From NCBI GenBank assembly GCA_036676395.1, contig JAKFCY010000002.1, positions 1,472,001 through 1,536,000 of the forward strand: a DNA stretch of 64,000 bases, written 5' to 3'. This document shows, in pieces, positions 26,231 to 36,900 of this stretch. The translations under genes and the position numbers were made by a program. The notes beneath the pieces were generated by a model. That model did not search any database. It worked only from the letters and a program-made list of their open reading frames with translations, and was not told the origin of the DNA. Every line of letters begins with the position of its first letter. The stretch's first letter is position 1. This DNA comes from Bdellovibrio sp. Its GTDB lineage: Bacteria; Bdellovibrionota; Bdellovibrionia; Bdellovibrionales; Bdellovibrionaceae.

Positions 26231-27310
26231 ATGAAGTCTTCACGTTTATTAAAGGCCTTTACCCTAGGTTTTGCTTTAACTATGTCTTCTAATGCATTTG
26301 CAGGCATGGCTCAGCAATTGTTAACTGAAGATATTCAAGGCGCGATTAAGACTTTACCGCGTGAAACGCGTCTTTATCATTATTTTGGAATCAATCTTAA
26401 CGGTAACAAATTAGAAGATACGAATTTAAAAAAAGCTAAAAACCGCTATTCAATGGTGAATGAGCGCGTAAAATACGCGGCTGAAAGTTTTTGGAATTTA
26501 AATGACAACACCACCAGATTAGCTAATGCCGGTCTTGGTTTATACTTAGCGATCGATCCATATGCGTCTTCTCCGGCGGCGGCTCCAGATACAGGAGCTA
26601 ACTTTGGTTCTACAATGATTGAAGTGACTTTCAACGCCGGAACCAAATATTTAGATTTAATGAAAGATGTACCGTTACGCGAAGAAACAATCCAAGCTAT
26701 CGTTACTGAAACCGGAATGAGCCAGGCAGATGCGGCTAAACTTTTATTACCACGTAATGAAGTTAAACCAAACGGAGAAACGGGCGTGGCCCACAAAGGT
26801 TTTGCACGCGATACATTGCAATTTATGGCAGAAAAGCAAAACGTAAATTTTAGAAAATTAGTTTATGCAGTTTACTCACAAGCTGGAATTTCTTTGACTG
26901 AGTATGGCTGGCAAGCAGCGACGACTTCATTTTGTGGATCTACAAATCCTCATCGTTCAGCTTTAGTTTATATCGGCGGACCGCAAACACAAAATGCAAT
27001 CAAATCGGTAACAATGATTTACTGGGCGCCACATTCAGCAGAATTAGATGCTCAAGAATCTGAAGCTTTAGATCGCAATAAAAAACTTTATAGCGTGTTA
27101 CAGCCGTTACGTCCTTTAGAAAAAAGCTATCAGTCAATCGCAGACGATGCTTATAAAGCTAAAAAAGCTGGCGATAAAGCTACGGCAAAACAATTAAGTG
27201 ATCAGTTGCCAGATATTATTTCAAATATCACTGCAACTATTATTTCTACGTATCCAGATCAGGCTGAATTATTAGACCTTCGCTCAAAAACTTTTGAGTG
27301 TATGAAATAA
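26231..27310 (+). CDS. Secreted protein with ADP-ribosyltransferase-like fold motifs
   Basis: Signal peptide (NAFA); LYH strand, GLGLYLAIDP..S motif, FG..MIEVTF..G.KYLDL, later GIS..EY; functional call by motif reading only. Confidence 0.55.
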   Translation: MKSSRLLKAFTLGFALTMSSNAFAGMAQQLLTEDIQGAIKTLPRETRLYHYFGINLNGNKLEDTNLKKAKNRYSMVNERVKYAAESFWNLNDNTTRLANAGLGLYLAIDPYASSPAAAPDTGANFGSTMIEVTFNAGTKYLDLMKDVPLREETIQAIVTETGMSQADAAKLLLPRNEVKPNGETGVAHKGFARDTLQFMAEKQNVNFRKLVYAVYSQAGISLTEYGWQAATTSFCGSTNPHRSALVYIGGPQTQNAIKSVTMIYWAPHSAELDAQESEALDRNKKLYSVLQPLRPLEKSYQSIADDAYKAKKAGDKATAKQLSDQLPDIISNITATIISTYPDQAELLDLRSKTFECMK

Positions 27311-27328
27311 TTCTTGAAGGATCCATTT

Positions 27329-28477
27329 GTGAAAACTCTTTTAGCCACGTTAATTTTATTTTTAGCAGCCGCACAAGCTTTTGCCTGTGATGCTGCTATT
27401 GAAAAATTCTCGCGCGATTGCGGGATGCAAGACCGTATGGCTAAAATTCGTGATGACTATGCGGCAATTGGTATCGATGTTGATGAAATCGGCGAGTACA
27501 AAGTATTACGTTTTATCGATCGTTCTTCTTGGGAAAAAGCTAAATCATTAAAAAAAGCCCCAACCGACATATATGATCCAGCTCCTGCCACTTGGCAAGT
27601 TTGGGAAAAAGGCATTGATTCACTATTTAAAGGCCAACAATTAAAAAATGTTTTATTCGGCCAAATGAATTTAGATCAAAATATTTTTTCACGCATTAAT
27701 ACTGTTTTATTAACTGATGGCATAACAAGTATTAAAGATAAAAACACTTCGCAAAGTAAAAAACCTGGTGAATTTCGTCATTATAGCGATGTTGGCGTTG
27801 GTTGGTGCGCGGGTAATGAAAATGCTAACAACTATCACCAAGGCATTCGCAAATCTGAAGATTCGATGGAACGTTTTCAAAAACGCTGGGAATCCTTAAT
27901 GGGTATTGAATTTCGTGAAATCGTTAAAAATGAAGATGGTCCGAATTGGCGCAGAGCTGATTTACAATCTGGCATGCATATATCTGAAGGAGCAACTTGC
28001 CGTGGTGGCAAAGGTGTTTTCATTGGCTACAGCGATTCTGGCCAAGTAGAAAGACAAATCGATTGGATCCGTATTTTTATTAAATCCAACTTACAAAGCT
28101 ATCAACGTGGCGAACCAAAGCTTGCGCCGGTCGAATTAGCCGCTGTTGTGCAAAAATGGTTTGTCAGCGTTCACCCTTTTGCTGACGGCAACGGCCGTAC
28201 TTCACGCGGTATACAAGAATTAATTATGGCTAATTTTGGGTTACCCTTTGTACCAGGTGGCGACTTACAAAACGATGCTATGGAAGACGTTGATGTTTAT
28301 ATCGAAAATACATATAAAAAGGTAGATTCAATGTTAACTGAACTTGAAATGTGCCTTAATAAACGTGGTGACCGGCTCATTCCAAGAGCTTGTCGCACTA
28401 TTGATGAATTAAATCATCATAGAATTTCTGATGACGAAGTCGAACAACCAGCTCAACAGATCCAAAACGGCGGTTAA
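27329..28477 (+). CDS. Secreted Fic-domain protein (AMPylase)
   Basis: Complete Fic motif HPFADGNGRTSR, PGEFR upstream motif; signal peptide from GTG 27329 ending QAFA. Confidence 0.88.
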   Translation: MKTLLATLILFLAAAQAFACDAAIEKFSRDCGMQDRMAKIRDDYAAIGIDVDEIGEYKVLRFIDRSSWEKAKSLKKAPTDIYDPAPATWQVWEKGIDSLFKGQQLKNVLFGQMNLDQNIFSRINTVLLTDGITSIKDKNTSQSKKPGEFRHYSDVGVGWCAGNENANNYHQGIRKSEDSMERFQKRWESLMGIEFREIVKNEDGPNWRRADLQSGMHISEGATCRGGKGVFIGYSDSGQVERQIDWIRIFIKSNLQSYQRGEPKLAPVELAAVVQKWFVSVHPFADGNGRTSRGIQELIMANFGLPFVPGGDLQNDAMEDVDVYIENTYKKVDSMLTELEMCLNKRGDRLIPRACRTIDELNHHRISDDEVEQPAQQIQNGG

Positions 28478-28736: not shown

Positions 28737-29894
28737 ATGCGCTTAATCTTATCTGTAGCAGCTTTTTTTCTAACAATTCATGCCGAAGCTCAAATAACCT
28801 CAGTCTCTGAAACAACATCCGTTTCAGCGCCATTAGCGACCGCTGAATTTACGCCTTCAAATAAATTTTCTGGAGATTTTAGATATCGTCATCAAGATAC
28901 AAAAGATGCTTCAAAGAAAAACCGCCGCGTTCATAGATTAATGTTACGTGTTGGCCAAGCATTTCAAATTCAATCTGATCTGAAATTCACCTATCGTTTA
29001 ATGACCGGAACAAATAATAACAGCGGAAATACAACCATCGCCGATGGCGGGTCAACACAAGGATCACCAAGATATACCATCGGCTTAGATCAGGCTTATG
29101 TTACTTATTTACCAGAGCAAAACTTAAGTCTTTATCTAGGAAAAATGCCACAGTTTTTTTATAGCGCCGGAAAAAACCAGGTTATTCTTGATCGTGATAT
29201 CACCCCAGAAGGCTTAGGCCTTCAATTTAAAGAGTCTTTCTTAGATAAAAAAATAGATTTGAATTTAAACTTAGCTTCGTTATGGGTGCGTGAAAAATAT
29301 AACTCAACCGCCGGCGAAGACGTTACAGATTCATTTTTAAATGTGGCTCAGGCCACCGTGGGTTACAAAATTAATTCTGACTACTCTACCCACCTTGGGC
29401 TTGGAACTTATACTTTTACAGATGTTAAAGGTTCAGCTCCAAATGATTTAACTATTCAAACAGCACCTGATTTCAAAGGTAATACTACCGATGGTTCAGG
29501 AAAATATCTTAATGAATATGAGATCTTACAAGCAAGCATTGAACTTAAATATGCTAAAGCTGCAAATGAGATTTCTGTATTTTACGAACAATTGAAAAAT
29601 GGCGGAGCCGATTCATTAAACGAAGCTACGATTTTTGGAACTACAATGTCTTATGGTAAATTCAGCTTAAGCGTAATGCGCCAAACTATTGAAAGTGATG
29701 CTGTATTAGCAATTTATGGCAGCGCAGACACAGCCGGCGGACAAACAAATTCACGTGGTAATGTTTATCTTTTTGGTTACAAATTAAATAAAAATGCTGT
29801 GATTAATTATTCACTCTATGACTTCGAAAGAAATGTCGAAACTACCCCGACTGATTACAAGGTTTCGCATATAGATTTAACTGTCGTATTTTAA
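28737..29894 (+). CDS. Putative porin (outer-membrane beta-barrel)
   Basis: Signal peptide, FSGDFRYR, LDQAY, LGKM, LDRDITPEG, C-terminal DLTVVF. Confidence 0.85.
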   Translation: MRLILSVAAFFLTIHAEAQITSVSETTSVSAPLATAEFTPSNKFSGDFRYRHQDTKDASKKNRRVHRLMLRVGQAFQIQSDLKFTYRLMTGTNNNSGNTTIADGGSTQGSPRYTIGLDQAYVTYLPEQNLSLYLGKMPQFFYSAGKNQVILDRDITPEGLGLQFKESFLDKKIDLNLNLASLWVREKYNSTAGEDVTDSFLNVAQATVGYKINSDYSTHLGLGTYTFTDVKGSAPNDLTIQTAPDFKGNTTDGSGKYLNEYEILQASIELKYAKAANEISVFYEQLKNGGADSLNEATIFGTTMSYGKFSLSVMRQTIESDAVLAIYGSADTAGGQTNSRGNVYLFGYKLNKNAVINYSLYDFERNVETTPTDYKVSHIDLTVVF

Positions 29895-30833
29895 AAGTTT
29901 ACGTGTAGCAATCAGCCCAAGCTCATGAGATGACTCAGCACTTTTGCCGTATTTAGGAAAAATCAACAACCCTGGCGCCGGAGATTTAACTTCTTCGCCG
30001 TTAGGGGTGTAGCCCAAGATCTCCCCGTCACTCACCGGCTGAAGATTTACTAGACCCGGAAGCAGCTCAGCACTTTGATTTTGTTTAGTCAGCTGATGCG
30101 TAATTTTAAAATACGGGGTTTCGGCGATAGGTTTTGGCAAAATCAAATTCGCGAAGTTCAAATAAAACAGTTTATCGCGCATCTCGCGAGCCAAGCTTTG
30201 ATCAAAACCGTTCTGACTGATCTCGATCACTAACGTTGAAATCTTTGCGTTACGGGCGAACTCTGAAAGCGTATGCCCATCACGCGAAAAGCCTTTCGCA
30301 TCAAAACAAATGATCGGCCATTCAGTACTTAAGACATGCGCCATTGAAATCATGTATTCATCTTCTGGGGCCACGACAAACGGAGTCAATGTCGCAGCTG
30401 ATGTCTGATGAAGATCGATGATTAGTTTGGGGCGCAGTTTTAGAATTGCTGCTTCGATTTGGCGAGCACGACCGTATTCGTAGGTTTTTGTGATTTCAAT
30501 ATTGATTACACCTTTTGGTTTATCTCCGGCATGAAAACTGCGGTTTAGATCTCGATCAACGAAACGCTCGTTTTTTTCGTAGGCCTTTAGGTTGTTTAGC
30601 AAGACTGCGAATGTAAATGGTGCGCTGATGTTTGATTTAATTACTTTTTCTAGAAATAGATTTACGGTTTGAAGCCCTATGACTTCGTTACCATGCGTAA
30701 GTGCTGTGAATAAGATGTCTGGTGTAGGTGACGTTGTAAAACCATAGGTATCGATTTGACTGTAACCCTGCAATACGCGGAACTGGTTATGCAGGGTTTG
30801 GAATTTGGTTAGTTCGTCGTGGTGTGAGGACAT
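29877..30833 (-). CDS. Succinylglutamate desuccinylase/aspartoacylase (M14) family Zn hydrolase
   Basis: HGNE, DLNRSF, IDLH, LVIE motifs. Confidence 0.85.
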   Translation of the reverse strand: MSSHHDELTKFQTLHNQFRVLQGYSQIDTYGFTTSPTPDILFTALTHGNEVIGLQTVNLFLEKVIKSNISAPFTFAVLLNNLKAYEKNERFVDRDLNRSFHAGDKPKGVINIEITKTYEYGRARQIEAAILKLRPKLIIDLHQTSAATLTPFVVAPEDEYMISMAHVLSTEWPIICFDAKGFSRDGHTLSEFARNAKISTLVIEISQNGFDQSLAREMRDKLFYLNFANLILPKPIAETPYFKITHQLTKQNQSAELLPGLVNLQPVSDGEILGYTPNGEEVKSPAPGLLIFPKYGKSAESSHELGLIATRKLLKYDS

Positions 30834-30842
30834 GACACAATG

Positions 30843-32306
30843 TTAAGCTGCTTTTTGAGCTTCGTCATCATTTTCGCAATCTCTGCATTTAAAAATATAA
30901 TGGCCTTGCGCATTTGTATCTAAAAACATTACTGCGCTAGGATGTTTAGGACATTTTTGATTATCACTGCCTGCTAGACCAGAGTCGTTATCATCCCCAT
31001 CTCTTATTTGAATCTGAGGTGCTGAAATCAATTTAAATATTGAATTTGTATCCTCATCGAAACCTTTTAGATATTTACGACCAACATCTTCTGTCCAAAA
31101 TCCTGCCTCATTTACAATTGATGCCACTTTGTGATCAATTAATATTTGATTTGGCTCACCAATCGAGGTCAGACGACTCGCATATGGCAATGGAACTCCA
31201 ATAGCTGTAAAAGTTTTAAAGTACTTCTGATCACCATAAAAACCTACGTTAGCAAAACCTGTAGAAATACCAACCCGAACTTGTAACTCAGACTTCCAGT
31301 GTTTCATATAAAACGACTTATCATCTTGAATGGCCTGGACTGCTTCTAATGCAGCCATACAAGTACGAGATATAAAATCAGTTCTTGCGATTGGCATATT
31401 CGAAAAGGCTAGAACTCCGTCGCCATGAAACTTATCGATAGTTAAATCATATTTTAGAAAGGTAGTTAGAGTAGTATCTAGAAAGCGCGCTAAAGATAAC
31501 TGCATATCTTTTTCGTCTAGTTTGGTTACTTTATCTGTAGATTTAACAATATCGATAAAAATTGCGCAAATTTCCGCTCTTTTAACATCTTCATCAATAG
31601 AAATCTGACCACCACGAATAGCTTTAATAATTTGAGGCGAAAATTGCGAAGACAATTGATGTAACTTAGTGGCTTCTTCTGTTTTTTTAATGATAACTAA
31701 TTCACGCGATCTCAATTCGTTTTCCAATTCGTTCTTAGCGTGAATCTCACTATTACGAAGCTTTTCATTAAAAAAACGAATAAGGGAACAAATAACAATA
31801 GATCCAACAATGAAAAATAGATTTCCGATAGTGTTCATTTTAAATTGGCCTTTAATTATTTCTACAATAATTAAAGCTAAATAAGGAAAATAAATTCCTG
31901 CCGCTGTTATAAACAAATATTTGCGACGAAATGGAATAAAGGACAGGCCACCTATTGCTATCAGGTTTAAACCAGCATAATAAGAAGTTGATGTGTCATT
32001 GATTCTGAAAATAAGATAATTAATCAAACCAGCAATTGATATTGCGTATACAGTTGCAATGGCTTGTGATTTTCCATAGTCATTTGATTTTCTGATTTGT
32101 CGATTAATTAGAATACAAATTGGAATAATCAAAAGTCGAACACATAGAAACTCAACAGAATTTTCTGCATAGAGCACTATATCCGCAAACCAAAAAACTA
32201 AAAAAAGAGGAACAGCCATCCAATTTGAAATCAGCCGAACAATCGACTGAACTTCAGCATTGTGAACCTGATCTCTCTTTTTGAAGTAGTTCGAGTTTGT
32301 AGTCAT
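30843..32306 (-). CDS. Membrane class III adenylate/guanylate cyclase with PhcS-like TM sensor and C-terminal Zn ribbon
   Basis: About 5-6 TMs including YYAGLNLI; FIDIVKST, DKFHGDG, RVGISTG, ASRL; CPKH...CRDC tail. Confidence 0.88.
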   Translation of the reverse strand: MTTNSNYFKKRDQVHNAEVQSIVRLISNWMAVPLFLVFWFADIVLYAENSVEFLCVRLLIIPICILINRQIRKSNDYGKSQAIATVYAISIAGLINYLIFRINDTSTSYYAGLNLIAIGGLSFIPFRRKYLFITAAGIYFPYLALIIVEIIKGQFKMNTIGNLFFIVGSIVICSLIRFFNEKLRNSEIHAKNELENELRSRELVIIKKTEEATKLHQLSSQFSPQIIKAIRGGQISIDEDVKRAEICAIFIDIVKSTDKVTKLDEKDMQLSLARFLDTTLTTFLKYDLTIDKFHGDGVLAFSNMPIARTDFISRTCMAALEAVQAIQDDKSFYMKHWKSELQVRVGISTGFANVGFYGDQKYFKTFTAIGVPLPYASRLTSIGEPNQILIDHKVASIVNEAGFWTEDVGRKYLKGFDEDTNSIFKLISAPQIQIRDGDDNDSGLAGSDNQKCPKHPSAVMFLDTNAQGHYIFKCRDCENDDEAQKAA

Positions 32307-32309
32307 TAA

Positions 32310-33779
32310 TTATTTTTTCGTCATTACTGCAAAAATATTAACTCCAAGAGGCTCTTGCTCAATAACACAAGTTTTACTTTGTGCTGTAAACATATTTTTC
32401 AAATCTTCTTTAGAACGATAAATTAAAACCCAATCCAATACATACTCCATAAACGGAACACACGGATTCTCTTTACTAAAATTACCGATAATAACGTGAC
32501 CATCTGGCTTAATTGCATTTAGCATTTGATTAGCAGTAGCTTGCGCAACTGGTTCTGTGAAGTAATCAAATAGACCTGCTGAATAAATTAAATCATAATC
32601 TTTTTCTTCTATGCCTTTTCCAATAATATTTCTAATAGCTAAATTTTCATATCTGAATTTGAAACCGGATTGAACCTGTCGATCAATAGTTAACATTTGA
32701 CGTTGAGCATGCTTTAATGACTCTTCATCTTGATCAATGCAGTGAAATTCAATATTTAAGCCATGAAATTCTGGATTATTTCTTACAAATAATTGCTGTT
32801 CCATCGCTGGACCACTGGCTATTGAAAGAATTTTTATTTTCTTTCCAGAACCCTTAGTTTTTACAACTTCTTTAATTTTTTGCTCTAAGTACGCACCACG
32901 ATTTTTAACTGCATTGCCCGCTGGTTCATCAATAAAATATTTATGCATGCATTGATCGAATAATGTCGCGCCAACCATTTCATTGCGGTAAAGATGATTC
33001 ATCATCTCATAATCACCAGCATACCCTCTTGGCTTATTATAAGCTCTACTTGCGAATGGAGCACCATAAACGAACTGTCCTATTTCTTTTCTAATAAAAC
33101 CAGTGCAGATATCATTATCTTCTTTGCTCAAATTCTTTAAATAAACAGGAATATCTTTGTAAACTGCCGGCAAGAACTTTCCTAAATAATCAGACATAGT
33201 ATCGGCTATAGTAAGTCGATATTCTTCATTAGCCTTAGCATCATCCAGTGGTGCAGATTTTTCCAAATTGTCGATCTGTTGCTTTAAATTCAAAAACCAA
33301 TTTTTTAGATCGTAAACAGCCATGCGAAATTTTTCTGGAATTTTTAACGAAGTCATCGTTAGAGTTTCTTGATTGGCAATAATCAGAGAAGCTTCGTTGA
33401 TAGCCTGACATCTTTCTACTTTGAATGGCTCACCTAATGTTTCAAGACCCACTTCATAGCGACCCTCTGCAACTTTGTCGTTACGAATCGGCTTCAATGC
33501 AACAGTTTGAGTTTCTACATTCTTATAAACTAATTTAAATAAATTGGTTACAGAACTTTCCATATATTTACTAAGGTTTTGCGCAGATGCTTCATCTACT
33601 AATACACCACAGCCAAATGAACTTAAATTTGTGACTTCGTAAGACTGATTATTGTGAACGATAAAACATTCTTTCGGATCAACAAACCATCTGTCCTGAC
33701 GGATAATTTTTTTTCTATTGGCGATCTGTTGATCTAGGACTAAAAAGCCTTCTTGTTGTAGTTTGACATTTTGACTCAT
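32310..33779 (-). CDS. PhcB-like SAM-dependent methyltransferase (putative fatty-acid methyl ester signal synthase)
   Basis: KPRGYAGDYEM, SIASGPA, YDLIYSAGLFDY, GNF..NP...MEY.LDW.LIYR, GVNIF; N-terminal PilZ-like 'R...R...NLS..G'. Confidence 0.8.
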   Translation of the reverse strand: MSQNVKLQQEGFLVLDQQIANRKKIIRQDRWFVDPKECFIVHNNQSYEVTNLSSFGCGVLVDEASAQNLSKYMESSVTNLFKLVYKNVETQTVALKPIRNDKVAEGRYEVGLETLGEPFKVERCQAINEASLIIANQETLTMTSLKIPEKFRMAVYDLKNWFLNLKQQIDNLEKSAPLDDAKANEEYRLTIADTMSDYLGKFLPAVYKDIPVYLKNLSKEDNDICTGFIRKEIGQFVYGAPFASRAYNKPRGYAGDYEMMNHLYRNEMVGATLFDQCMHKYFIDEPAGNAVKNRGAYLEQKIKEVVKTKGSGKKIKILSIASGPAMEQQLFVRNNPEFHGLNIEFHCIDQDEESLKHAQRQMLTIDRQVQSGFKFRYENLAIRNIIGKGIEEKDYDLIYSAGLFDYFTEPVAQATANQMLNAIKPDGHVIIGNFSKENPCVPFMEYVLDWVLIYRSKEDLKNMFTAQSKTCVIEQEPLGVNIFAVMTKK

Positions 33780-33803
33780 GATGCCTCCGCAATCTGCTGT
33801 TCT

Positions 33804-33830
33804 TTATCGAGATTTAATTCATCGAATTCA
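33804..33830 (-). promoter_or_regulatory. Possible sigma28-type promoter of the phcB-like operon
   Basis: Minus strand TGAA-N15-CTCGATAA, 24 nt upstream of ATG with GGAGG RBS. Confidence 0.4.
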
Positions 33831-33907
33831 ATAGGGCGAAAGTCTAGAGATATGCAAAACCCATAACATGATTAGGTTTCGTGTTCCAATTAGCTGCAGA
33901 ACAAAGA

Positions 33908-33943
33908 CCGTAACATGTGCCTTTGGCAGACAGCACTTCGCGC
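33908..33943 (-). pseudogene. 36-bp remnant homologous to the radical SAM gene at 36031-36900
   Basis: Encodes REVLSAKGTCYG versus REVLSTKGTCYG (36251-36286); 29/36 nt identical. Confidence 0.75.
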
Positions 33944-34173
33944 ACATCCTGCATTCTCGCTTACACTCCCAACTGATCATAAGTTTTAAATAGGAGATCT
34001 CATCCCGGACTATAGCATTGTGCGGATTTGAGACTCAACATTACAAATCGATTTGATAACAGACCTGGCCACAACAGCAGCCTGAGCACCTTAAGTTACT
34101 TTGCTAGTCTTTTGATATGATAAAAATTTAATTTCAAAACTTCTAGGTATTTCTAATAAAGCAATTAATTGTT

Positions 34174-35889
34174 TTATTTTTTTCGTCCGAACCGTATCAA
34201 AATAGTCGTGCCTTTACCCGGTTCACTATCTATCGATAGTTCTCCTACATTATTTTGTACAAAAGACTTAGCATGAAACAATCCCAAGCCCGATCCTGCT
34301 TTAAGCTTATCTGCTTTACCAAAAGTATATCCACGTCTACCTAGTTGGTTTATTATATCCGCAGATATACCTATACCATTATCCGTAATCTTTATACTAA
34401 GCCCGTTGCTTACATATTCAATTTTAATTTCAATGCTAGGGCTAGATACGCTTTCAACAGCCTCAATTGAATTGTTAATAATATTGGACAACATTCGAAC
34501 AAATTCTACTTCATCCATTTCAAGACTAAGTTTGCCATTAGTCATGTCCACAAAATGAAAATGTATTGCCCTACTTTTTGAGAACTCTATCTTTTTTTCT
34601 TCTATTAAGCGATTAAGTACCGATGAAATCAAAAATTCATGCGTACCTGAATACATACTATTTTTATCCAACAAACTATTCGCTATTCCCGTAATTCGCG
34701 CAGAGGCTTGCATTATCAATTCCGATTTTTCTCCTGATGGATCTTTTGCCAAAGTCGGCACCAGCATGGTTAATACTGACAATGGAGATTTAATATCATG
34801 GGCAATTTGTTCTAAAATATGCTTACGTTCGAGTTCTTTCATAAGCAATTCTTTTTCTTCGTAAATTGCTTTGATATTTTCGTTAACAATAGCTGCCATG
34901 TGAAAAAATACAAATACTGCAGCTAGAGGCACAAGCATGTAGCCATCTATAATGCCAAATATATTTAATAAGTCATTAAATGCAGTAAATACAAAAAATA
35001 ACCCCGAAAAAAACTCTAGATAATTCATCTTTGATGTCTGGATTTTTCGGCCTATCTTAAAAAGAAAGCGTGTAAAAATTAAAATCGCTATCGGCATTGG
35101 GAACATAGTCCCAAATTGCACGACATCTGGCGACGTACCAAAACACAAGAATAAAAAAGCGATAATTAAAAAACCAAGATATACTTGAAATAATCGATTA
35201 CTAATATATTTTCTATCTTTGAAAAAATAAAAATAAGCCGTCGCCCCGATCCAAAGGCATACATCAGCCGTTTTATGTGCATGAAGCATACTCAACTGAA
35301 TTTGGAATCGATTATTAACAACCAAAATAGAATATCCAATAAAAGCAAGACCACCCAAGATCAAAACTACCAAGTATTTCTGATGAATCTTTCCTGCAAA
35401 TAAAAATATTGCTAAACACAAAAGTATAGCAATATTTACTACAATTGCTATATTTAGGTAAACGTCGAAAAAACTATTAATGGCCGCTTGCGTGCCAGAT
35501 TTTAAATTTGGAAATGATTTGTTTTTAGCAAAAAATTGAGAGTATGAAACTACTGTCCATTTGATTGATTGAATATTTTTAAGATACTTACAATCTAAAC
35601 TAGGTCGTTCATAAAAAGCTGAAGCAACCTTAAAGGACGCATCACCAGTTTCAATTACAAGTCGATCATCGAGCCAAATACTATGAACGCCATGAATCAC
35701 TTGCGGAAAAACAATACTCAAATCATCATTACATAATTTAGAAATTGAATCAGAGGTAGCAGAGTAAACCCAGGAATTATTTTCATGTACCCATTGTTTT
35801 TGCACAGTCCATTGAGCTGAAGCCGACATATCAGTCGCTGCGAAAAAACTCGAAAGCCCAACAAGAATTGAAACTGCTAACTCAAGCAT
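34174..35889 (-). CDS. Orphan sensor histidine kinase (periplasmic domain plus about 7 TMs)
   Basis: AHDIKSPL H-box, NIINNSIEA, DNGIGI, GSGLGL, GKGT. Confidence 0.93.
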   Translation of the reverse strand: MLELAVSILVGLSSFFAATDMSASAQWTVQKQWVHENNSWVYSATSDSISKLCNDDLSIVFPQVIHGVHSIWLDDRLVIETGDASFKVASAFYERPSLDCKYLKNIQSIKWTVVSYSQFFAKNKSFPNLKSGTQAAINSFFDVYLNIAIVVNIAILLCLAIFLFAGKIHQKYLVVLILGGLAFIGYSILVVNNRFQIQLSMLHAHKTADVCLWIGATAYFYFFKDRKYISNRLFQVYLGFLIIAFLFLCFGTSPDVVQFGTMFPMPIAILIFTRFLFKIGRKIQTSKMNYLEFFSGLFFVFTAFNDLLNIFGIIDGYMLVPLAAVFVFFHMAAIVNENIKAIYEEKELLMKELERKHILEQIAHDIKSPLSVLTMLVPTLAKDPSGEKSELIMQASARITGIANSLLDKNSMYSGTHEFLISSVLNRLIEEKKIEFSKSRAIHFHFVDMTNGKLSLEMDEVEFVRMLSNIINNSIEAVESVSSPSIEIKIEYVSNGLSIKITDNGIGISADIINQLGRRGYTFGKADKLKAGSGLGLFHAKSFVQNNVGELSIDSEPGKGTTILIRFGRKK

Positions 35890-36030: not shown

Positions 36031-36900
36031 TTACGATCCAAACCGCTCCACATACTGACATTTCTGACAAAGCTCTTCCAACAGCTCCCCACGCTCAAAA
36101 CCTGTTTTAATTTTTTGGGCGCGCTCTGTTTTCATGATGTCTTTCAAAGAAGCTCCATCAGCCACAGAACCCAACTTAAGCAATGCTTCTTTATCCAAAC
36201 AGCACGGCACCACGTCGCCATTAGCATGAATAGCTAACTGTTTTCTCATGCCGTAACAAGTACCCTTAGTAGATAGCACTTCACGCTTTAATGTAGGCCA
36301 TTCGAATTCAGTATCAAAGTGAAGATATAACTTATCTTTAACCTTCTTAGATTTCTGCACACGCACGTCAACATTTTCGTTTAAGCTCACTCCGAAACGC
36401 TTCTCGACTAAATCATAAACTTGCAGGTTTTGATCTAACTGTGCGTTTACAGAAGCTAAATTCCAAAGACGCAGATTAATATAATAAGAATTTTTCTTTT
36501 CCAAAGACTGTTCGCAAAAGTCTAAGATCGGAGATAAGTACTGCTCTAAGGTCTGGCGCGAAGTATTGGCAAAATATGAGTGCACAGAAAAATTAATTTG
36601 TTCTAAATGTTTCCAATTTAAAATCGTATCGATGTGGCGTTTGATCAAAGTGCCATTCGTTGTTAAGAAAATTTTTAATTCTAACTCATCACAGACTTTA
36701 ACAATTTCAGCGAACTGGGCGTGACCTAAGGGTTCTCCCATTAAATGCAGGCAAACTTGTTTCGCCAAAGGCTTTGCCTGGATAGCATAGTTACGAAAAT
36801 TTTCGACAGAAATCACTTTTTTTTCGCGCACGACTTCAGGGCAGAAGCTGCACTGTAAATTACAAATATTACTGATTTCTATATAGATACGCTCGAACAT
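36031..36900 (-). CDS. Radical SAM protein with SPASM/twitch domain
   Basis: CNLQCSFC, GEP, TTNG, CYG...GDVVPCC...CQKC. Confidence 0.92.
   Translation of the reverse strand: MFERIYIEISNICNLQCSFCPEVVREKKVISVENFRNYAIQAKPLAKQVCLHLMGEPLGHAQFAEIVKVCDELELKIFLTTNGTLIKRHIDTILNWKHLEQINFSVHSYFANTSRQTLEQYLSPILDFCEQSLEKKNSYYINLRLWNLASVNAQLDQNLQVYDLVEKRFGVSLNENVDVRVQKSKKVKDKLYLHFDTEFEWPTLKREVLSTKGTCYGMRKQLAIHANGDVVPCCLDKEALLKLGSVADGASLKDIMKTERAQKIKTGFERGELLEELCQKCQYVERFGS

Follow-up and report, generated by a model that had tools for sequence, protein, structure and literature searches.

What becomes of a Phc-type quorum-sensing pair when its receptor is joined to a cyclase in place of a kinase core? The question is raised by three co-oriented genes on the minus strand of a 64,000-nucleotide stretch of DNA from Bdellovibrio sp. 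(contig JAKFCY010000002.1 of assembly GCA_036676395.1, positions 1,472,001 to 1,536,000; the whole stretch is called the window here), which encode a methyltransferase (gene 1), a membrane sensor fused to a class III cyclase (gene 2), and a zinc hydrolase (gene 3). In the available text of PMC10653808, PhcB is described as a small-molecule signal synthase and the Phc signals as diffusible 3-hydroxy (3-OH) fatty-acid methyl esters. A preliminary description of the window had recognized PhcB-like and PhcS-like motifs and proposed a Phc-type module rewired to a cyclic-nucleotide output. Our analysis demonstrates, at the level of sequence, the homologies of genes 1 and 2, their domain architecture, and the conservation of their pairing, and favors, with a probability of roughly 0.55, the interpretation that the two form a Phc-type synthase/receptor pair whose receptor output has been exchanged for an adenylate cyclase, so that a lipid signal would gate the synthesis of cyclic AMP (cAMP).

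The host genome of the window, that of a Bdellovibrio-like predator from soil, measures 3.4 Mb and is 99% complete. All three open reading frames (ORFs) of the preliminary description were recovered with their coordinates on the ORF list, as were the gaps of 3 bp (32307-32309) between genes 1 and 2 and of 9 bp (30834-30842) between genes 2 and 3. Every quoted motif was likewise located, namely KPRGYAGDYEM (residues 249-259), YSAGLFDY (399-406), MEYVLDWVLIYR (444-455), and GVNIF in the methyltransferase and YYAGLNLI (residues 109-116) in the sensor-cyclase, and the domain calls made for the three products (methyltransferase, class III cyclase, and AstE/aspartoacylase hydrolase) agree with Pfam (Table 1).

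Table 1. Coordinates of the three genes, their domains, and the adjoining intergenic region (positions of the window; aa, amino acids)
Feature	Coordinates	Strand	Extent	Basis or remark
PhcB-like S-adenosylmethionine-dependent methyltransferase gene	32310..33779	-	489 aa	First in module; BLASTP to Burkholderiales phcB-like genes
N-terminal beta-barrel, PilZ-like fold, with RxxR and NxSxxG	33435..33692	-	residues 30-115	AlphaFold, Foldseek
Helical middle region of methyltransferase	32850..33419	-	residues 121-310	Holds invariant K-P-x-G-Y-A-G-D motif
Rossmann-type methyltransferase core	32319..32837	-	residues 315-487	Sub-threshold Pfam models, Foldseek
Sensor-cyclase gene	30843..32306	-	487 aa	Six-transmembrane-helix PhcS-type sensor, helical linker, class III cyclase, C-terminal zinc ribbon
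PhcS-type six-helix sensor domain	31701..32273	-	residues 12-202 of sensor-cyclase	hhalign, hidden Markov model
Class III cyclase catalytic domain, adenylate-type (Lys292/Thr367)	31059..31577	-	residues 244-416	PF00211
C-terminal zinc-ribbon-like CxxH...CxxC	30876..30953	-	residues 452-477	
AstE/aspartoacylase-family zinc hydrolase gene	29877..30833	-	318 aa	PF24827, E 1.7e-18
Upstream intergenic region, likely promoter region of operon	33780..34173	.	394 bp	Inferred

The PhcB-like identity of gene 1 proposed in the preliminary description is borne out by BLASTP, which aligned the protein with the operon methyltransferase of Ralstonia sp. R-29 at an expect value (E) of 6e-41 (26% identity over 352 residues) and with a Paraburkholderia phcB-like methyltransferase at E 1e-36. 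This observation is further strengthened by searches of three whole Burkholderiales genomes (Ralstonia, Cupriavidus necator, and Paraburkholderia xenovorans), each of which yielded exactly one match at E <=0.001, and that single match was in every case the gene heading the phcBS-like operon. Judged by these alignments, gene 1 is a true PhcB homologue. An alignment of 36 methyltransferase sequences from Bdellovibrionota and Burkholderiales contains 20 invariant columns, and the motifs that had first drawn attention to the gene sit in its conserved blocks. Several relatives of gene 1 bear the KEGG phcB label at the Joint Genome Institute (JGI) by automatic annotation, and the nearest named relatives are Bdellovibrio species at 50-54% identity.

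The AlphaFold model of the methyltransferase (predicted local distance difference test score, pLDDT, 90.9) comprises an N-terminal barrel, a long helical region, and a Rossmann core; starting at residue 145, the helical region can be aligned with the PhcB-like protein of Ralstonia. Pfam and NCBIfam hold no family matching the N-terminus, while at residues 316-447 several class I methyltransferase Pfam models (Methyltransf_12/31/25 and CheR) fall just below threshold. Among structures, the best Foldseek matches are 3ocj and C-/O-methyltransferases of polyketide synthases (PKS), a fold that, as modeled, seems better suited to acyl or lipid substrates than to proteins. This bears on the alternative that gene 1 encodes a CheR-like protein methyltransferase which modifies the sensor-cyclase itself, with no small-molecule signal at all. 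Such a role could be read from the CheR model PF01739, whose 22.3 bits (E 9.9e-5) stay below its cut-off of 27 bits, from the sequence search of the PDB, whose sole match was CheR at E 0.25, and from MapZ, a PilZ protein known to bind CheR1, which is found among the Foldseek rows of the N-terminal barrel (PDB 5xly). We regard it as highly improbable: the homology to PhcB (E 6e-41) is far stronger, the fold matches are PKS and natural-product methyltransferases, and PhcB is a signal synthase as far as the available text of PMC10653808 describes it.

The interpretation of a synthase/receptor pair also requires a receptor, and the Burkholderiales operons provide the reference for it. A plasmid tblastn search led to pPHS1_P of Paraburkholderia graminis, on which a methyltransferase (468 aa) is accompanied by a kinase (445 aa) and two response regulators. 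In the operon of Ralstonia sp. R-29, a methyltransferase of 464 aa is followed by a HisKA/HATPase kinase of 447 aa, a REC-HisKA-HATPase protein of 384 aa, and a REC protein of 339 aa, an order that matches phcBSRQ as given in the available text of PMC10653808. A contig scan seeded with Paraburkholderia and Bdellovibrionota methyltransferases found at least 595 relatives. The best 80 of these, ranked by their match to the Paraburkholderia seed and thus a sample narrower than the full range of the family, all belong to Burkholderiales or to unclassified proteobacterial metagenome-assembled genomes, including six Ralstonia, several Cupriavidus necator, and P. xenovorans LB400, and in 78 of these 80 loci a PhcS-like kinase lies beside the methyltransferase.

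Gene 2 carries six hydrophobic segments with short connecting loops in residues 21-181, a region that the preliminary description had likened to the sensor of PhcS. Profile-profile alignment upholds this likeness, as hhalign matched 37 cyclase N-termini to 74 PhcS-like N-termini with a probability of 99.6% (E 9.5e-24) and in end-to-end register (columns 12-202 on 12-198), while controls in which either profile was reversed reached probabilities of 0.7% and 0.3%. A hidden Markov model (HMM) built from 30 sensor domains was then applied to the six frames of the same three Burkholderiales genomes (6-9.7 Mb), and it found one significant match in each (E 3.8e-22, 5.0e-21, and 3.5e-20), always the gene immediately after the phcB-like gene, with the next match at E 0.73. 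Because the profile-profile match coincides with one gene per genome beside phcB, the sensor appears to be specifically of the PhcS type, and on this sequence evidence the N-terminus of gene 2 is a PhcS-type sensor domain. The HMM gave no second significant match in C. necator or P. xenovorans, genomes in which the presence of LqsS/CqsS is unverified.

Pairwise comparison pointed the same way at lower significance: BLASTP placed residues 42-197 of the window sensor on 42-197 of the Paraburkholderia PhcS-like kinase (E 6e-5, with YYAGLNL on FYAGLTL) and matched the Ralstonia kinase at E 0.005, and the window sensor alone searched against the three genomes gave one weak match (E 0.09), at the right gene. 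Neither Pfam nor NCBIfam holds a family for this domain, with the Pfam models MASE2, MASE7, and MASE8 unmatched at E up to 1; in a language-model protein atlas, MASE2/7/8 clusters appeared as look-alikes of the sensor, which we take only as a lead. Pfam finds Guanylate_cyc and nothing else in gene 2, with no HisKA/HATPase_c core, and gene 2 is therefore not a PhcS-family kinase but only a carrier of the PhcS sensor domain.

Comparison with phcBSRQ brings out both what is shared and what is new. In both systems a methyltransferase gene precedes a gene for a six-helix sensor protein, the enzyme and the sensor domain are homologous, and the motifs KPxGYAGDY, AGLFDY, and WxLIYR (enzyme) and YYAGL and FNE..R (sensor) recur. 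The differences lie in the output, as the window sensor is fused to a class III cyclase whereas the Ralstonia and Paraburkholderia proteins carry a HisKA/HATPase core; in the absence of PhcR/PhcQ genes after the window pair; in the enzyme, which at ~26% identity retains an N-terminal PilZ-like domain with RxxR and NxSxxG that is kept in the Bdellovibrionota copies while both motifs are lost in Burkholderiales PhcB; and in the host phylum, Bdellovibrionota. By homology, then, the pair shares the logic of synthase and sensor with phcBSRQ and departs from it in the output. Among the Pseudomonadota surveyed in PMC10653808, the phc cluster is restricted to Betaproteobacteria as far as its available text goes, and the present pair would extend Phc-type signaling beyond that class.

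The linkage of the two genes in other genomes, which the preliminary description had made one test of its proposal, proved to be conserved across the phylum. In a sample of 301 Bdellovibrionota genomes, the methyltransferase was found in 48 and the sensor in 46, and we inspected the 8-kb flanks of the 40 top-ranking methyltransferase matches from genomes other than that of the window. In 34 of these loci the two genes stand in tandem, methyltransferase first, and in two more (L058 and L062) they diverge, with one desaturase-family gene between them, bringing the pair to 36/40 loci altogether, often with short or overlapping spacing. Counted by genome, the sensor adjoins the methyltransferase match in 41 of the 46 genomes that have it, and of seven further methyltransferase matches, six have a sensor match within 200 bp, and the contig of the remaining one is short and comes from a genome that is 75% complete. 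Since the flanking genes differ outside the closely related genus, the pairing is not explained by inherited synteny alone, and its recurrence in 36/40 loci with otherwise different neighbors places the arrangement far beyond chance. No conserved receiver gene of the PhcR/PhcQ type was found in the 40 loci. As side observations, one genome carries two sensor-domain genes in tandem after its methyltransferase (G144:C1:104055-106345, with ORFs of 481 and 475 aa), and three others (G201, G208, and G267) hold extra sensor copies away from any methyltransferase match.

The output domain was examined residue by residue. PF00211 (Guanylate_cyc) matches gene 2 at E 2.3e-13 (50.6 bits against a gathering cut-off of 21.9 bits), and the best solved relative is CyaB of Pseudomonas aeruginosa (3r5g, E 1.7e-15), a membrane-sensor class IIIb adenylate cyclase whose Lys/Thr pair and both metal-binding Asp residues align with those of the window protein. 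The membrane part of CyaB is a MASE2 domain. Among 37 family members, the metal-binding Asp252 and Asp296 and the transition-state Arg378 are each present in 37/37, and the substrate residues Lys292 and Thr367 in 31 and 35, respectively; from the alignment, this Lys/Thr pair is the adenylate-type substrate pair. The window cyclase thus keeps five of six catalytic residues (Asp252, Asp296, Lys292, Thr367, and Arg378), and the sixth position, 374, is Asn in 18 members, Pro in 17, His in 1, and Ser in 1. Between sensor and cyclase there is no HAMP or PAS domain, and a helical stretch of ~60 residues joins helix 6 to the catalytic domain. The C-terminal ribbon, which reads CxxC/H...CxxC across the family and occurs in 35/37 members, matches no Pfam family; its Cys452 and Cys474 are each present in 35/37 family members and Cys477 in 32/37. 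Nearly all sensor-cyclases (30843-30953 in the window; L031-L070) end in K/S-A-A or -A-S, including two without the ribbon, an ending that resembles a C-terminal protease-recognition tail.

From these elements, a route from lipid to messenger may be outlined. The PhcB homologue would methylate a fatty-acid-derived carboxylate, yielding most likely a hydrophobic signal of the methyl-ester type, and the PhcS-type six-helix domain would detect this methylated lipid in the membrane, as it does that signal class in Ralstonia and Cupriavidus. The signal would pass through the helical linker to a dimeric class IIIb adenylate cyclase, so that a one-protein route to cAMP replaces the PhcS-PhcR/PhcQ phosphorelay. 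Because the sensor is joined to the cyclase in place of a kinase core, ligand occupancy would translate immediately into altered cAMP synthesis. The genome holds four class III cyclase matches and eight matches to proteins binding cyclic nucleoside monophosphates (cNMP), and since the latter exist, receivers for the messenger would be at hand and cAMP would be read by them. In this outline, we infer the identity of the product, its binding by the sensor, the direction of regulation, and the action between cells.

Several observations weigh against this interpretation. Identity to PhcB is only 26%, and the substrate and product may for that reason differ from 3-OH fatty-acid methyl esters. The pairing has exceptions on both sides, as three genomes (G217, G256, and G268; loci L046-L048) have the methyltransferase and no sensor homologue by the window query, five have a sensor homologue and no methyltransferase match, and at L045 (G121:C14:730417-730953) the methyltransferase is followed only by a 204-aa ORF covering sensor residues 11-189. 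That ORF represents either a cyclase gene cut short or a sensor encoded on its own. Finally, the window protein has Pro374 (codon 31185-31187) in place of the transition-state Asn, which CyaB possesses, and the same substitution recurs in 16 of the 36 relatives, none of them outside the clade to which the window protein belongs. Asn is retained by 18 members that are more distant.

Because Pro replaces the transition-state Asn, cyclase activity may be low or altered in the lineage of the window, and the further step would be a cyclase that is catalytically weak or dead there, leaving the protein as a receptor, a scaffold, or an enzyme that depends on a partner. The phosphate-binding G-F-T motif, which reads K-S-T in the window, speaks for this explanation together with the confinement of Pro374 to one clade that departs from a conserved Asn. 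It is nonetheless improbable in our estimation, given that the window protein retains the remaining five catalytic residues, that Asn374 is kept in 18/37 members, and that the Pro374 members share 43-51% full-length identity, which argues for continued selection on the domain. Because Pro374 is confined to the window's clade, the ancestral cyclase would have been catalytically complete, and the sequences thus point to an ancestral enzyme with the full catalytic set.

The genomes in which the methyltransferase stands alone lead to another explanation. As G217, G256, G268, and the G121 fragment illustrate, the methyltransferase can apparently persist without the receptor, which would also fit a metabolic role, and the whole system might therefore serve cell-autonomous sensing of lipid status, in which the methyltransferase, often with a desaturase, modifies the membrane lipid or fatty acid of its own cell and the six-helix domain detects that lipid in the same membrane and sets cAMP, with no communication between cells. 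Desaturase-family genes do recur beside the pair: a gene of the fatty-acid-desaturase family (PF00487) lies within 8 kb in 22/40 loci, its NCBIfam matches being weak and of the DesA-family or GntB-like kind, and it is the immediate neighbor of the pair in seven of the 22 more distant loci (L057:5601-6410, L058:9409-10452, L059:9721-10599, L060:3771-4646, L061:7025-7846, L062:9074-9961, and L070:4856-5839). This link to lipids also speaks for the favored synthase/receptor interpretation. In the three cyclase-less genomes (L046-L048) such a gene comes directly after the methyltransferase, and in the genome of the window there are three desaturase matches, all far from the pair. Since the loops of the sensor are very short, any ligand would have to be met within the membrane, and membrane domains of other adenylate cyclases have been reported as lipid receptors, according to the available portions of PMC11606603 and PMC12505454. 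On the other side, the closest characterized system, PhcB/PhcS, uses a diffusible signal in the account available from PMC10653808. Sequence does not tell the cell-autonomous and the cell-to-cell readings apart, and we consider the cell-autonomous one unlikely, if to be taken seriously.

3-OH fatty acids are components of lipid A, and this raises the question of whose lipids would be sensed. The pair could sense or convert foreign lipids, for example the lipid A 3-OH fatty acids of prey, and so report prey and not the density of kin. The context of relatives named Bdellovibrio and the nature of the Phc signals as 3-OH fatty-acid methyl esters (PMC10653808, in its available text) would suit this explanation, while the module is also present in many Bdellovibrionota families that may or may not be predatory. 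We hold it to be quite improbable, somewhat more so than an inactive cyclase, as a replacement for signaling within a synthase/receptor pair. Within such a pair, a predator circuit could, if real, make use of prey lipid A 3-hydroxy fatty acids and thereby signal the presence of both prey and kin.

The N-terminal barrel of the methyltransferase adds a possible second input. Folded alone, it reaches an AlphaFold pLDDT of 86.0, and although Foldseek gave no match at E 0.001 or better, the top rows were mostly PilZ domains, including MotI (E 3.4e-3), BcsA, PlzA, PA0012, VCA0042, MrkH, MapZ, Alg44, and YcgR with query TM-scores of 0.4-0.54. The sequence NLSSFG fits NxSxxG, and the arginine motif reads RQDR (RxxR) against the RxxxR of PilZ. 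The Pfam PilZ model PF07238 found no match at E up to 1 in methyltransferase residues 1-190, and the protein atlas provided a look-alike lead only, a cluster with 20% PilZ. Because there is no Foldseek match at E 0.001 and the Pfam model is unmatched, control of the methyltransferase by cyclic di-GMP (c-di-GMP) through a PilZ-like head is put forward from the model as a lead and not as a finding. The most ambitious version of the circuit, a natural and self-contained route from autoinducer to cAMP in which a PhcB-like enzyme, possibly gated by c-di-GMP, makes a lipid methyl ester that binds the six-helix anchor within the membrane, switches cAMP synthesis directly, and also reports prey, is a tentative proposition that we would rather doubt than assert.

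The significance of the pair lies in the ligands of the six-helix anchors of class III adenylate cyclases, an open question that has been approached by chimeras (PMC4821796) and by biochemical ligand hunts (PMC11606603, PMC12505454, and PMC12414865), all as presented in the available parts of these articles. In the engineered CqsS(6TM)-Rv1625c chimera of Beltz et al. (eLife 2016, PMC4821796), the autoinducer CAI-1 regulates cAMP synthesis, and the available text describes the direct fusion of a class III cyclase to a quorum-sensing receptor that has six helices and minimal loops, as in the window. That chimera is man-made, with a CqsS receptor and a class IIIa cyclase, whereas the window protein is natural, of the PhcS type, resembles class IIIb CyaB, and is encoded together with a candidate signal synthase. 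By its architecture, the pair is a natural counterpart of the chimera on a different receptor type. The survey of cyclase anchors in PMC4821796 includes no PhcS-like cluster in the part of the article available. For the six-helix anchors of Rv1625c and of mammalian membrane adenylate cyclases, reported as lipid receptors in the accessible portions of PMC11606603, PMC12505454, and PMC12414865, the likeness is one of concept, that of a hexahelical anchor serving as a receptor for aliphatic lipids and tuning a class III cyclase; their ligands were found biochemically, whereas the candidate ligand in the window is pointed to by a neighboring gene.

The sensor-cyclase is therewith a natural candidate, by sequence homology, for a lipid-signal-gated adenylate cyclase: the sensor domain found in a known receptor for lipid quorum signals is here naturally fused to a cyclase and kept beside a homologue of the signal synthase, and the pairing extends over many families of the phylum, to which named, isolate-labeled Bdellovibrio belong. 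Because the synthase homologue is kept alongside, the candidate ligand is predictable and the hypothesis can be tested directly. Should the self-contained circuit from autoinducer to cAMP be real, no earlier quorum-sensing receptor with a cyclase output would be known from nature, and no earlier bacterial membrane cyclase whose anchor ligand is predictable from a neighboring gene. The finding would also tie lipid signaling to the networks that cAMP and c-di-GMP form in predatory bacteria. Among the papers listed on Bdellovibrio PhcB, on PhcB with adenylate cyclase, and on cAMP and quorum sensing in Bdellovibrio, none was found to describe this pair.

The range of outputs attached to the sensor extends beyond this pair. 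A search with residues 1-235 of gene 2 returned 270 cluster representatives at E <=0.001, and among the best 150 of these, 86 carry a cyclase, 39 a kinase, one both, and 24 are short or other. A Pfam scan of 70 chosen from the 150, biased to unusual lengths so that its 28:40 cyclase:kinase ratio is not a frequency, revealed plain kinases of ~415-455 aa and hybrid kinases of ~700 aa with REC and Hpt domains. Names for the kinase-type relatives are generic where looked up (10 clusters), and NCBIfam named only the kinase cores in the 13 scanned. A FastTree of 167 sensor domains, a quick and rough tree with long branches, requires 10 changes between cyclase and kinase output, at least four of them forced by well-supported branches, which suggests that the output of the sensor has been exchanged repeatedly. 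Four unusual fusions also carry the PhcS-type domain (P0145, P0196, P0210, and P0254). In one it follows a Ser/Thr protein kinase (794 aa), in another it is part of a kinase-REC-cyclase protein (879 aa), in a third it follows an alpha/beta hydrolase within a 1246-aa hybrid kinase, and in the last it is part of a kinase-REC-SpoIIE phosphatase protein (948 aa). Because it occurs on cyclases, on plain and hybrid kinases, and on a Ser/Thr kinase, the PhcS-type sensor would be a portable input domain.

Gene 3 had been suggested as a third member of the module that processes or destroys the signal, and this part of the proposal did not hold. The hydrolase aligns with aspartoacylase structures at E 3e-4, with HxxE and the later His aligned, and the AstE/aspartoacylase family cleaves N-acyl amino acids, not methyl esters. 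It was found in 0/40 related loci by tblastn at E 1e-5, and a match exists in only three of the family's 41 genomes, one of which is that of the window. The hydrolase is probably co-transcribed with the pair here, and it is a local passenger of the operon in this genome and not a part of the module.

Within the upstream intergenic region, two promoter-like sites were noted on the minus strand (34038-34009 and 34003-33976), and a single terminator-like site lies 3' of the hydrolase (29851-29835); in the promoter and terminator scan, the signal at the locus was not above that of shuffled sequence. A convergent porin gene downstream overlaps the end of the hydrolase. Upstream of the module, beyond the intergenic region, lie an unrelated multi-helix histidine kinase of 571 aa (34174-35889, minus strand) and a small radical SAM/SPASM protein of 289 aa (36031-36900, minus strand), neither of which is conserved beside the pair in relatives. 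Metagenome runs of soil and groundwater, belonging to at least two studies, contain DNA nearly identical to 29700-34200, with shares of 1.00, 1.00, 0.94, and 0.78, and the two runs with a share of 1.00 may be the source. Elsewhere in the window, the product of a plus-strand gene (27314-28477; 387 aa) begins with a signal-peptide-like segment and contains a Fic/DOC domain (PF02661, E 7e-8), and adjoining this gene is a gene for a secreted-looking protein of 359 aa without an annotatable family (26231-27310).

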